Below are positions 27,189 through 61,851 of a DNA stretch of 64,000 bases, piece after piece. This stretch comes from Pocillopora damicornis. Its lineage: Eukaryota. Every line of letters begins with the position of its first letter. The first letter of the stretch is position 1. Below the pieces are notes generated by a model that was given only the letters and a program-made list of their open reading frames with translations, was not told the DNA's origin and did no database searches. The stretch spans positions 186,001 through 250,000 of the forward strand of contig NW_020845065.1 in the NCBI RefSeq assembly GCF_003704095.1, given 5' to 3'. The position numbers and the translations under genes are program-made.

Positions 27189-27243
27189 ATGGAATCTATA
27201 CTTTTTGTGGCTGTTTTAGCAGTGCTGCAGATTTCTACCCAAG
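27189..27243 (+). CDS. Alternative (or orphan) signal-peptide exon 1a for Ly6/uPAR gene A: MESILFVAVLAVLQISTQ-G
   Basis: CAGCATGG Kozak context, hydrophobic signal peptide and AAG|GTATT phase-1 donor, compatible with the acceptor at 32646. No other LU exon was seen between 27.2 and 32.6 kb. Confidence 0.65.
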
Positions 27244-29079
27244 GTATTCATTATTTGATAGTTTACTTTCAATATCGAAGTAAAGTGGCACGGTAGATAT
27301 TGCGTATCGAGTAAAGAATACCAGCTAAATCAGTTTTCGTCTCCTTTGATGGCGTAGCTCACTAATGAGATCCTTGCAGCTCAGTCAGTTGACATGGCAT
27401 CCGCCTTCGAAATCTAAACTGGCTGAGGTTCAAAACGTCGCACGCTTGTAACGTGGTAAATTTCTTTCTTCGGTCGTAAACTGGATTTTAGGGCGCAATA
27501 ATTGGCCACAAGTAGCCAAGAGGCTGTCGTTAGTTCATGATGAGGTATTACAGACTGGTCGTCGTTTTCGCTGGCCGGCCGGTTCTGAGTATCGATTACA
27601 AACCGTGCCGTCACAATTTATAATTGAGTTGCAAGAGACAAACGGTAACCACTAGGCTGAAACTAAACTTGTTATGTTCGATAAAAAATGAACCTGATTT
27701 GAGCTATTTTCCTATAATCCACACATTAATCTCGTAGAAATATAGCATTGAATTTCCAAGCACTTTAACGGCAAATTTTTTCGCTTCTGAGCAAGAAATA
27801 AACTCTTTTTTTTTCTCCCGTTTGTCGTAAGCGTCAATCTTGACCAATGTTTTTTTAAGTTAAATTCAGCACGGCACGCGTCAGCGATAATTCTGGATGT
27901 TTCTTTTTTTGATACATTTATGAAAACTCGCTAAAAGTTAAAGTAGTAGTTTTAGATAACTATTACGGTGATTTTGTCGTTATTTAGAAATAATGTGGAT
28001 AACAAACAGATAAGTAGTAAGAGCCACTCGACTACGCGGTACAATTAAGATTGAACTAATTTGCATGTTAAGTCAGAATACTCGAAAACAGTGCACTAGG
28101 GTGGCATTCAGTGAGACAAAAGAACATAGAACTTGTCATTAATCTTAAAAACTAATTACAGATGCCAATAGTTGGGTAGCAAAACAAGTTCCAATTATTC
28201 CATTCGTGAAATAACAAACAATAATGATAACTTTTTTTCGCAATATTTCAAATAAGATTCTGATTTATTCGACAGAAAATTGATAAGAGAGTGTGAAAGA
28301 CTGTGCGCTCTGACATTTGCTGATAATTGATTTGATAATGATGGCACCGAAAGTGAACCACCCCTAAGGCACTTGAGTTTATTTCCACTTGAAAAAATGG
28401 AAGATAAATTCTGTTTTCTCTCATTACCAAATCTCAGCTGTCATTTTGACACCTGAGATCATTTTAACACCTGAGATTTTCAACCTTTTGTTCCCAGTCA
28501 TTTCAAGCCAGACAGCCCTATATTCCATAAAAAGGAAAGCTCTGCTTCCAAGCTTAGTTGATACGCCTTCCTAATGTTTTGTTTTTTCATAACAACGCCT
28601 GCAAGCTAGAAATCATCAAATTTTTTCTTAAAGAGTAAACCATTTTTTCTCAAAACCTTCTTCAGCCAAGTGTTAGAACGAATAAAACGATATCTATTTT
28701 GGTTTGTAAGCAAAAATTGAAAATAAACGATGATCGATATCGTTGGAATAAGAAACGGGAGAAGTAAATATTCAGTTCTCAACAAAAGCTTCCGTGACAC
28801 TGTGCTAAAGTAATAATTGTACATACGATCCGAAAAATTCAGAGGGTTCGTTCTCACACATGTTTCAGAACGGACATGTGTCTTGAGGTTCAAGCAGTCT
28901 CACGGAAATCCTTGTTTCTTTCCCATGAACTACATGGCCGATGTTATCAGTTCCGTAGGAGCTCTATTTTGTGTTAACGATTATTGTGATGTTGAGGACC
29001 GAATATTTTCTGTATTTTTTTCCTGGGGTGTGTGAGCTGCATTTGCGCCTTTTGGACGATTCTAAAGCTTTTGAAAATC

Positions 29080-57985: not shown

Positions 57986-59567
57986 AAAAAAAAAATTTAA
58001 AAAAAATGCGAGCTCGGCTTTTAGGCTTGGCTAAATATATATTTTAGAGGTTTGGCTTCGGTTTTCGAAGAGCGTATTGAAATTTACCTTGTATCAGAAG
58101 AAATATTTTTCCAAATTTGCAGCTTATTTATACCTTATAAGGCTTCATCCCACTCTATCCCCATGGTTGTCATTAAAATCCATTGTGAGTTAGAAAACCA
58201 AGCTGTGCAAGCAAAATTGTATTGACTTTATTTTGGAAATGGTTTATTTGAATAGTGTTCTCGAAACTCGGTGGAAAGTCACCTGTTTTTTCTTTCCTTC
58301 ATACAATGAATGTAAATCTCTGTACCGTTCATCATTGATTATTCTTCATGTTCTTCTTGGTGCTAGTAGAAGTGGTAGATATTTTTACTGTAGCGCTTCA
58401 GAGCGCAGCGAACGTCTACCGCCATTCGCCTCTACTTCGGTAAACAATAGTTGAAAAAATAATACAGAGATGTATATCCAGTTTGTGCGATGTCGTAAAT
58501 GTCCTTTCATGATTGAAAAATCTTCTCTTATTCAGTAATTATAAAATTTAATCATACTTGGAAATATTCATACTAATTTAACAAAAAGGAAAATCACAAC
58601 CCAGGATTGAAGCTAGGTCTTCCTAATAAAAGCAATTGATAAGAATAGTTTTATTCTTAGCGAGTTTATATCGAGGTATGGATACACGCAGGAAGAGCAA
58701 GAGAGAAGCATAAACCGGTTGCTCCAAGCGCAGCCTTGGCCAACTTTAGCTTCTTAAGTGGTATCCAAACTCCGCAAGGGCTTTCATAACTCGTTCTACC
58801 CGCAGTGTCAATATTGCTGATAAGGGCGCATTTGTTGAAGAACAATTCCCCTCTTATAAGTTCAAATTTTTTCGTTATTTTGACCGACAGTTATACTAGT
58901 AAAAGAAGACTGAGGTGTGCTAATGGCACTTAACTAGTTCCACAATTGACTGTAGCAAAATAAGTTGATAAACGGGATCTCGCGGGAACTTTGCGTAAAA
59001 TGAATCGCAAGCGTCAAATTTTGTGCACGCAGCGGTGCGTACATAGCGATAAAAGCCATGTTGGTTCAGTAAGAATTGGTCACGCCTACAACGACTGTTG
59101 AACCGCACATGAAAGAAAAATATCAATTAAACAAATATATTAAACTTACATGATTATTGTGTTCTAGTGAGCAAACATTTCGCTTGCAATCAAATTCATT
59201 CAAAGTTTATTGTTGATCGTGTTTAAAAAATCAATTATCCATTTGAAAAACTTGAGTACTTTAAGTATTCCGTCAAACGGCTTACTACGCAATAATGTAA
59301 AATGGTTTTCTGCAACGACTGAGTTCGCATGAAATGTCGCAGTCAGAAAGTCAATGATAGCGACACCTTCTGGTGCTTGTATGTAGATATTATTAGTCAC
59401 CATCGAAACGGTGTCGAGTCTTCTTGCAGGTGTCATGAATACAATAATAAACTAAAATATTAATGACTCGCTGAAGAACTTTTTCGTAGAATTTGTGCAT
59501 GCCGAGTAACTCTGTGAAAACTTCTGGTCGCAGTTCAAACAACCTGCCGACTTGGTCCAACGCACGA

Positions 59568-61851
59568 ATGGCGAATTTGACCTGTTCAAATCGGGGCCGA
59601 GGCAAAATTATTATTTTGTTTCCGTTACTCTTAATGTTTTTTCTCCCTAAAGGTAAGTTTAATCGAATGCTTAAACCGAAACATACGCGTCGTTCTGATC
59701 TATATTCGACAAAACTTTATATTACGCGTCAGAAAGATTAGTAAAAATCTAAAAGACAACAAATACAATTACAAACGTTGGCGAGGTTTGTGTGTTCACC
59801 GGACACAGGAACTAATGTGCAAGCCTGATGCTTTGAAAAAAAACTCAATGAATTCCAATTCTTTTAACAATCAATCGACGACAGGATAAAATCCTTAGAA
59901 GAGAAGAAATTAGTTTCACTCATTCCAGTTTAAATGTTTTAACTGACATATGTAATTAGAGACGATGAGACAACCGCGCTCAAAGAAATCAGTATCTTTT
60001 AAATGCATATTAAATCTCTCTTGTCATTTCTTTTTTAAGTATTCATTCTCAATAATTCCAATTTTACTTTGAACTGGTTCAAAAATATTAATTTACTTAT
60101 CTCAACACTATTCCGATCACTCGGAGACTTAACTCGTTGAACCAAGGCAGCCATCTCTGTTCTTAAATTAAAGCGTACAAATTCTATAACAAAAATTTCA
60201 GAGACCCTCAAGCAAGACAGGGTAAGAACTAAGTAAATACCTCACGAAATTGACGGATGACCGCCAGAAACCTGCGGTGTCGCTCTATGAAGCTATCATG
60301 AATGTCTACCTTGCTAAGTCAGGTATTTGTGAGGGCTTTGAGGTTTCAGAGCATCAAAACAAGTATAGTGACGCCGCAAGAGGATTATGTGTGAAGAGAA
60401 AATTGAGTTTTCCCCGTTTCGTGGTTGGTGCAACTTAAATTCTTTTGTTAAGTATTACACGTAAAATGAAAATGAGTAGATAACTAACATGATATACTCG
60501 TTTACTGGAAAAATAAAACCGTAAGTTTCCTATTCAGCTCATCTTATCACCAAAGCTTCTTAAGAAATCTACAGATTTAATTCCTTTACTTTACTTCTTC
60601 TGTCCTTTTCTGTTTCTAAAAATTTGATTTGACTCCGAAAATCCAAGCAGAAATTAAAAACGACAAAGTTTTCCATCACGATGGATTATCTGACTTCAGT
60701 TTTGTGGTGCATAGGTACAACGTAAAGATTTTAATCAGTCTTATAACTGGTTTTACTAACATTTTAATTCTTACGGATGATAATCTGAAAAATCAATAAT
60801 ATTATCGTTATTCGCCTCGAGCTAAAATAACCATGTGGTAAAAACACAAAATTTAATTTTTCCTTTCTTAGAATCACGTCTATAATAAGGCGAAGGACTG
60901 TTTCTCATACTAGCAAAATTAAGAAGAAGCGAGTTTTTATTTTCGTTTTCATATGCCTTCTAGACATACCAAAGCAAAAACAAAGTTACAGGGGGCTTAT
61001 TAAATCTCTCTTCTCAAAAAGCCAGATGGTAAAAGGGATTTATTCAAAGTGATTTTAGCGAAAGCAAGAAAAACATACACCCCTCCAATGATTTTCAGGC
61101 CATTTTCGCTATTGTGTGGCGCGTGCTCCATCAATATTCATTTCAAATTTAACGCCAGTAAGTCTTAATAAGTCCCGATGTATCACGACATGTTAATCCA
61201 TTTATAAAACCTTTCACGCGCAGCGTACGAGTTTCCCAATAAGGTAGAGCCATCAGAAAGTTAAGAAGAAACCACTATGTTTGGCAATAATATTGCCTGT
61301 AAACTCCATCATCATTATCATCTTTGTCATCATTATTATCAGCAGTGGTAGAAGTAGGAGTAGTGCATATTTCAACGTAACGCTCAGACATCGAATTAGC
61401 TAAGCCAAGCAAAAAACAGCTTTCGTTAACAGCCTCCTCAGACACAAAATTAATATCGTTATCATCATAATTTATATCTTTTTTAGCATTTAGCCTACGA
61501 TGTAACGTCTGCGAAAGCGGAGAGTCATGGGAAAACTGCGACAGAAACATGACGATAAAAGAGTGTACCGCACAAGAAGGGAGATGCGTCAAATATGACT
61601 ATCACGTGACATACGATAACACTACCATGCCACAATCGAAGCGTTTTCAACGTGATTGTTTGCCTCCAGCCCAGTGCTCTAGCAGTACACTTCAAGCTTG
61701 TAGAGACCTCGAGAAGCCTGGTATCCCGATGAAAGTAACGTGTCACGTGTCATGTTGTGCCGAAGACTCTTGCAATTCTCAAGTAAAGACAAGTGCCTCT
61801 GTTCTAGTAATGATTATCATTCTTCTAACTGGGGCCACCTTTCAAATTTAA
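59568..61851 (+). CDS. Ly6/uPAR (three-finger) GPI-anchored protein E, 149 aa, 12 Cys
   Basis: Signal exon 59568-59652 (MANLTCSNRGRGKIIILFPLLLMFFLPK, AAG|GTAAGT) joined to 61487-61851: AFSLRCNVC...ENC...KEC...GRC...FQRDCLPPAQC...QAC...VTCHVSCCAEDSCN, followed directly by a GPI signal. Confidence 0.9.

Follow-up and report, generated by a model that had tools for sequence, protein, structure and literature searches.

The 64,000-nucleotide stretch of the coral Pocillopora damicornis analyzed here (hereinafter the window; assembly GCF_003704095.1, contig NW_020845065.1, positions 186,001 to 250,000) contains a cluster of five genes, A–E, each coding for a single Ly6/uPAR (LU) domain, one of which, gene D, exists in two deeply separated sequence classes. 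Six-frame scans recovered four LU domains that are each contained in one exon (A, B, D and E) and one split domain (C), with A and E on the plus strand and B, C and D on the minus strand, as proposed in a first-pass annotation of this DNA. When joined, all five models are open frames that run from a signal peptide through one LU domain to a hydrophobic tail (Table 1). The LU domain of C is interrupted by a phase-2 intron, and a non-coding exon with its end near 43825 comes before the signal exon of this gene. The five domains share little beyond their cysteines (Cys), as the annotation had observed, their pairwise identities being 20–38%, or 9–28% with the Cys set aside. While it had counted two 100-N gaps, the window holds three N runs (100, 60 and 100 nucleotides).

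The spliced transcripts that these models imply do exist. Assembled RNA contigs, coming from four studies for each mapped region and covering A–D, display canonical joints for these four genes, while gene E is borne out by matching database proteins: its spliced model equals P0028, a named P. damicornis protein, and near-equal Logan proteins lie on contigs of 1–1.3 kb. The A exons are joined from 27243 to 32646 in two of the four runs and from 30370 to 32646 in three; the B joint (38142 to 36560) is present in all four; those of C occur in three (43609 to 42813) and one (42636 to 42024), and those of D in two (49247 to 47960) and one (51843 to 47960). When the window was scanned under strict criteria for phase-1 signal exons of hydrophobic character, six matches were returned, all of them beyond 26 kb and none in 1–26 kb; five of the six were later seen spliced, and two true exons (27189 and 59568) were overlooked by the scan. 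A separate signal exon with a phase-1 intron and a clustered gene arrangement, both found here, are part of the description of the Ly6/uPAR family (PMC6600238).

In a feature absent from the first-pass annotation, A and D each possess two alternative signal exons joined to one domain exon. The DNA similarity between the distal and proximal exons of A exceeds that of 200 out of 200 shuffles, and the proximal exon is likely a duplicate of the distal one, with homologous N-termini in Stylophora isoform X1 and in Orbicella. Since both A exons have counterparts among the Stylophora isoforms, this arrangement is older than the Pocillopora/Stylophora split. Both isoforms of D are present in RefSeq, their models being equal to named P. 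damicornis proteins, and its proximal signal peptide has a homologue in Oculina (P0321). The mature protein is likely to be the same from either first exon; hence, the likely purpose of the two exons is to offer two promoters, by which A and D could each deploy one mature protein in two expression contexts. Run X1 also shows a joint from the distal A exon (27243) into the proximal one (~30225), with a short side of 28 nucleotides; on visual inspection, the distal frame runs into a stop within the proximal exon and would act as an upstream open reading frame. In gene E, an open frame at ~59500–59568 (+) has possible upstream starts that add 18–23 N-terminal residues (P0001, P0027). The orphan signal-like exon (Table 1) is a candidate for a second first exon of B or for the head of a gene lost in the adjacent gap. 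Its RNA cover is close to nil, from which absence should not be concluded, and the mapping regions ended at 39700 or began at 39870, so that a joint between it and B could not show.

Table 1. Exons and other features of the LU gene cluster, in window coordinates.
Feature	Position	Strand	Evidence
Gene A distal signal-peptide exon, coding part, phase 1	27189..27243	+	spliced to 32646 in runs X6, X9
Gene A distal exon N-terminus	27189..27243	+	also in P0189 and Stylophora isoform X2 P0190
Gene A proximal signal-peptide exon	30304..30370	+	spliced in runs X1, X5, X6
Gene A domain exon: 12-Cys LU domain, long finger II, stalk, hydrophobic tail	32646..33151	+	predicted model matches uPAR domain III
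Gene B domain exon: 12-Cys LU domain and tail	36130..36560	-	PF16975 below cut-off; LYPD6B best PDB sequence match
Gene B signal-peptide exon	38142..38193	-	joint in 4/4 runs
Orphan signal-like exon, perfect donor, beside N gap 39765-39864	40268..40316	-	signal-exon scan
Gene C last exon: Cys 6-12, stalk, tail	41673..42024	-	joint from 42636 to 42024 in X9
Gene C exon: Cys 1-5, ends in phase 2	42636..42813	-	PF00021 E 0.0017; RNA joint
Gene C signal exon, ATG 43648	43609..43659	-	joints in X1, X9, X16
Gene D domain exon: 10-Cys LU domain, Thr/Pro stalk, tail; dimorphic gene	47485..47960	-	PF00021 over cut-off; predicted model; two classes
Gene D proximal signal exon	49247..49310	-	joint in X6, X9; model equals P0011
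Gene D distal signal exon	51843..51909	-	joint in X16; model equals P0013
Rhodopsin-type GPCR gene, three exons, not LU, inside cluster	53170..55965	-	7tm_1; RNA joint
Gene E signal exon	59568..59652	+	spliced model equals P0028; P0001, P0002
Gene E exon: 12-Cys LU domain and short tail	61487..61851	+	Pfam, Cys count

There are 12 Cys in each of A, B, C and E, namely the ten of the Ly6/uPAR consensus (PMC6600238) and, as the annotation had pointed out, two more located between C7 and the CC doublet; by position these are the loop-III pair of the six-disulfide LYPD6/LYPD1-type frame, where they would form a bond, the connectivity being assigned from sequence position. Gene D departs from the ten-Cys consensus: its ten Cys include the finger-III pair but not C7 and C8 (the leading member of the CC doublet), which were lost together, and the same loss is seen in Oculina and in L052, a distant metagenomic relative. 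Since the two were lost as a pair, gene D supports a nested connectivity of the LYPD6 type. The asparagine after the last Cys is present in C, D and E but is replaced by leucine in A and proline in B; accordingly, we file A and B (missing asparagine) and D (missing C7/C8) as variants of the LU fold. Pfam gives weak LU-clan matches for B–E and none for A, with only D passing a cut-off (PF00021, 25.1 bits against 24.8). B reaches 29.3 bits against a cut-off of 31.5 for the LYPD6 family (PF16975), to which the other four have no match, and its best PDB sequence match is LYPD6B (E 0.057). Its Cys spacing (2,8,8,6,22,5,4,17,3,0,4) also parallels that of LYPD6 (2,8,8,6,18,5,4,10,2,0,4). A profile built from 73 coral-type domains retrieves uPAR first, with LYPD6 at E 8.6e-8 and LYPD1 at E 1e-4.

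The first-pass annotation regarded the 12-Cys frame and the clustering as special, and stated that its claim would fall if these were already described. They are: LYPD6, LYPD6B and Lynx2 have six disulfides with the extra ones in loops I and III (PMC7582953), starfish Lystar5 likewise has six (PMC9410279), insect Coiled has 12 invariant Cys (PMC3058042), and clustering is the usual layout of the Ly6 family (PMC6600238). Cnidarian Ly6 genes are also in print, with 563 three-finger genes in 13 cnidarian genomes, an average of 43 per genome (PMC13719153, Paramonov 2026). The P. damicornis genome itself points the same way. A PF00021 search gave 42 matches; the 30 loci whose sequence was retrieved (the other 12 stand outside the frame count) comprise 25 with the 12-Cys frame, two with the canonical ten and three that are partial or of another type. 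Another profile search recovered 134 12-Cys frames among its 150 top matches, a figure biased by a profile that was itself built from 12-Cys sequences, making the PF00021 census the fairer one. We thus set aside the 12-Cys frame as a novelty. The three genome searches combined yield ~50 LU places, spread over 24 contigs (at E values up to 1, with part of them checked, and leaving out two own-genome matches with internal stops), with nine contigs carrying two to six each. Two-domain LU genes with reduced Cys frames (9+10; 11 plus another) were seen on other contigs (L030, L033, L047). A 2019 review treats the loop-III bond as derived (‘apotypic’; PMC6600238); that it dominates in a cnidarian hints at a possibly ancestral state, and the census bears on the question of the ancestral Ly6 frame.

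Structure prediction, which covered A and D with alignments containing other LU proteins, models both as three-finger domains, in line with the fold assigned in the annotation. The D model (predicted local distance difference test score, pLDDT, 94) matches uPAR domain III with Z 11.0 and a root-mean-square deviation of 2.3 over 82 residues, followed by CD59 (Z 8.8) and LYPD6B (Z 8.7); Foldseek gives it E 4e-4 and a template-modelling score of 0.78. The A model (pLDDT 79) also has uPAR domain III as its best match (Z 9.1, deviation 2.8 over 87 residues); Foldseek alone found no match for it at E 0.001 (best E 0.24). Language-model matches for D are all under 0.9 and serve as leads only. All five proteins end in a hydrophobic segment whose 15-mers have a mean hydropathy of 1.6–2.5 and are followed by 1–7 residues, a tail of the glycosylphosphatidylinositol (GPI) type that the annotation had recognized; by this hydropathy GPI anchoring is likely.

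The antiquity and diversification that the annotation ascribed to the array stand, given the presence of orthologues in distant corals; the surface location it proposed is probable. Gene A has orthologues in both robust and complex corals, with domain identities of 84% in Stylophora, 57% in Orbicella and 58% in Porites (54–63% in distant corals as a whole); the Oculina orthologue of D is 52% identical in the domain, and E is 86% identical between Pocillopora and Stylophora. Orthologues from Stylophora bear the identifiers LOC111324685 and LOC111334595. Within Pocillopora, A, B and E are near-invariant, with 93.5–100% domain identity among the members listed. For A, the listed members of the single Pocillopora-level cluster of 72 have domains that are at least 96% identical (14 of 15 with the full domain); for B, the corresponding cluster of 99 members is at least 93.5% identical in 13 of 15 members listed, as measured within its own 90% cluster; and for E, identity to P0028 is at least 98% (10 of 14 full-length). 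The annotation had suggested a role in recognition; this near-invariance speaks against it for A, B and E, and only D, with its two classes, supports it.

Gene D is represented by 20 proteins with ten distinct domains, which fall into two classes that are 92–100% identical within and 72–76% between, a split with support values of 97/95 in the tree. The between-class identity is thus lower than that of A (84%) or E (86%) between Pocillopora and Stylophora. Class GNT, that of the window, includes all six named D proteins, from three Pocillopora species, while class GKS comprises 14 ENA/Logan proteins without a species name, on ~70 contigs. The ENA counts of the two classes are probably biased because gene callers can report GKS, but not GNT, from an in-frame start within the intron. 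In P0026, a GKS domain is joined to the proximal signal peptide of D. The classes have disjoint residues in 21 of 72 non-Cys columns, most densely in finger III (eight of the 14 columns between its cysteines), and the linker after C4 varies within both classes (four of six columns); the tails are 83–90% identical between classes, compared to 72–76% for the domain.

The RNA run X1 differs from the window at none of 1703 nucleotides at A, one of 1149 at B, eight of 1462 in the A introns and none of 389 about 1 kb downstream of D, and is practically identical to it at C. In the D intron, it differs at 43 of ~1185 nucleotides, and its divergence in successive stretches upstream from the D exon is 6% (16/255), 3% (27/~930) and 1.5% (26/~1760). 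X1 shows only GKS-type ends of the D exon and no GNT joint, while X9, which is ~1.5% diverged from the window at A, has a GNT joint together with a GKS-type end and hence both classes. No second D copy was found in searches of the P. damicornis genome, in which gaps remain. Because X1 matches the window at A–C, X9 shows both classes and the genome has one copy, we read the classes as likely alleles; the contigs of the two runs, combined with the protein-level distances, point to an old allelic dimorphism shared across lineages. A metagenome scan for genomic context of the GKS class gave L052 and nothing else.

Several points tell against this reading. A second D-like copy could lie in gaps of the draft genome; X6 shows the window class of D, yet shares some intron variants with X1; the second class comes from records without a species name, of which only 20–30 nucleotides of DNA were seen; and the RNA runs are contigs from possibly pooled or mixed samples. 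The excess of differences in the domain relative to the tail is significant in two of three pairs (p 0.014, 0.011 and 0.23). B and C could also hide allele classes. As for the proteins themselves, the tail of B is weakly hydrophobic (1.6), C has a basic patch ahead of its tail, and the predicted models of A and D give no disulfide list. There is an appreciable, albeit minority, chance that the two classes reflect a paralogue with a presence/absence distribution, or fixed differences between cryptic Pocillopora species spread by hybridization, in what would be an ordinary birth-and-death cluster devoid of balancing selection. Consistent with this, every named D protein from the three species is of the window class, with the other known solely from unnamed records; the D intron of X1 has a 406-nucleotide insertion, and its contigs do not cover the 3′ region of D in the window; and a long branch (0.33) leads to the window class in the domain tree, where the other class is placed near the outgroup P0009, as expected after an incomplete sweep or introgression. 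Against it are the single D copy, the near-identity of X1 to the window on both sides of D and the co-occurrence of both classes in X9.

The annotation's broader proposal, that the whole cluster is a polymorphic self/non-self array for allorecognition or symbiont recognition, draws on the surface-type proteins, the low identity of the paralogues and the dimorphism of D; additionally, heat induces a gene bearing the label Ly6h, which may be distinct from the present ones, in Stylophora cells that host algae (10.64898/2026.07.18.739195). With A, B and E near-invariant in Pocillopora and A retaining 54–63% domain identity in distant corals, we consider this improbable. Furthermore, loci governing fusion and rejection are expected to carry many alleles, and D has two main classes instead. 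Somewhat less unlikely, although still doubtful, is a role in skeleton formation or in the assembly of epithelial junctions in calicoblastic tissue rather than in receptor modulation: Pdcyst-rich, the studied Pocillopora member of the family, localizes to granules of the calicoblastic ectoderm and falls ~100-fold before bleaching (PMC2728513), and insect Coiled is required for septate junctions (PMC3058042). However, the gene that matches the Pdcyst-rich peptide (12/16 residues, E 1.09) lies on another contig, for which reason we rejected Pdcyst-rich as one of the five. The shared fold, the toxins among the lower structural matches and a toxin-like transcript reported in a zoanthid (PMC5630949) might suggest secreted three-finger venom toxins, which would lack a C-terminal anchor signal; the hydrophobic tail of all five proteins, their best matches to uPAR, CD59 and LYPD6B, and the near-invariance of A, B and E render this highly implausible.

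On balance, we think it probable that the locus is a tandem cluster of five spliced single-domain Ly6/uPAR genes, whose products are likely GPI-anchored, non-signaling surface binders, with D likely segregating as two old allele classes. In this scheme, the signal peptide and hydrophobic tail would be removed and a GPI anchor added, and the fingers, there being no signaling domain, would bind the outer face of a membrane protein by analogy with LYPD6, Lynx, sleepless and Coiled. The partners of A, B and E are likely fixed host proteins, for example a channel, a receptor or a component of junctions. The lost 7-8 bond of D is likely replaced by the finger-III disulfide, and the partner contacted by the divergent finger III of this protein is likely variable or foreign, a circumstance that would account for the persistence of both classes. 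More speculatively, and as an extension to which we give clearly less credence, D might be a long-balanced, trans-species dimorphic locus for recognition of a pathogen, symbiont, gamete or neighboring colony, with the six-disulfide frame being ancestral in animals.

The cluster extends past the window, with further LU genes within ~30 kb: a 12-Cys single-exon gene (L054:4213-4647, +), a split gene with a rearranged frame that has CC at C6 and a single Cys at the doublet (L054-L055, contig C1700, ~269.9-271.3 kb, +) and a partial copy, inverted and near-identical, in a region rich in gaps (contig C1700, 276.0-275.7 kb, -). Between D and E lies a G-protein-coupled receptor (GPCR) gene, whose 3′ end is ~1.3 kb from the distal first exon of D; its first exon matches 7tm_1 at E 1.5e-4, below the cut-off, X1 shows a joint from 54152 to 53486, and the joined frame is open, with approximate boundaries. 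At 51913-53486, an X1 contig combines a plus-strand GT..AG joint (~51913 to 53013) with the minus-strand GPCR joint, and is possibly either an antisense transcript over the GPCR 3′ end and the distal promoter of D or a merged contig. Upstream of the cluster are an emp24/GOLD (p24, TMED-type) gene by Pfam (~3400-5700, -) and a large multi-exon coiled-coil gene (~10600-25800, +) with a short Cys-rich repeat near 22650-22800. Proteins of the p24 type carry GPI-anchored cargo; the nearness of this gene to the cluster may be chance. High-depth interspersed repeats with many loose ends occupy 44600-45130, 34300-34400, 36640-36680 and 38520-38690.

The fold, Cys frame and clustered layout are already known, and the interest of the locus lies in gene D. 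Our literature search, with subscription papers and supplements outside its scope, found no paper on the cluster, its gene identifiers or polymorphic Ly6 genes of corals; the supplements of PMC13719153 and 10.64898/2026.07.18.739195 may list these genes. In the parts covered, PMC2728513 and PMC13719153 do not treat the cluster, its Cys frame or its polymorphism, and neither the main text of the Stylophora cell atlas nor the Orbicella depth-speciation paper mentions Ly6; PMC12630909 and PMC8162421 were checked, the latter with no match. Gene D offers a candidate recognition gene in the form of a single surface protein with two deep classes that are likely alleles. These are cheap to genotype in existing population data and can be tested against fusion, fertilization, symbiont and disease outcomes. 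To our knowledge, the genes by which reef corals recognize self and non-self, gametes or pathogens are largely unidentified.

Among known systems, LYPD6, LYPD6B and LYPD1 (Lynx2) and the starfish Lystar5 resemble the window genes in combining a single LU domain with six disulfides (putative in the window genes), one of them in loop III (PMC7582953, PMC9410279). This group provides the nearest named single-domain sequence matches, with near-identical Cys spacing, and is among the top language-model matches for A (0.90). The window genes differ from them in having three rather than two residues before the CC doublet, longer fingers II and III, and scores below the Pfam cut-off. The vertebrate and Drosophila Ly6 clusters (the latter with Coiled, Boudin and quiver/sleepless) share the tandem arrangement, phase-1 signal exon and GPI-type tail (PMC6600238), and D and a flanking gene weakly match QVR; however, their LU domain is typically spread over two exons as against one in four of the five window genes, and the duplicated signal exons of A and D set the coral genes apart. 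Closer to home, Pdcyst-rich of P. damicornis (FJ628421), described in 2009, is a coral LU protein with a signal peptide and predicted GPI anchor (PMC2728513). It differs in its separate locus. Its match in this genome, the two-exon L016 (contig C4119), is likewise a 12-Cys gene; it has 12 of the 16 residues of the Pdcyst-rich antigen peptide and is likely Pdcyst-rich itself or a close paralogue.

The 7-8 disulfide missing in D is also the one absent from uPAR domain I, C4.4A and the ectodomain of TGF-beta receptor II, the last of which has a loop-3 bond too (PMC6600238) and is a structural match to D (Z 8.0). Removal of this bond leaves single-domain LU proteins unstable and aggregated (PMC6600238). 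In contrast to that group, D is a stand-alone single domain in which the loss is conserved across Oculina and L052, making it a natural single-domain LU protein without a bond held to be essential. Finally, Bouncer/SPACA4, a fish fertilization factor, is a single LU protein of the GPI type that acts in recognition (PMC6600238); while it differs in having the 10-Cys frame, it provides a functional model for the variable gene D.

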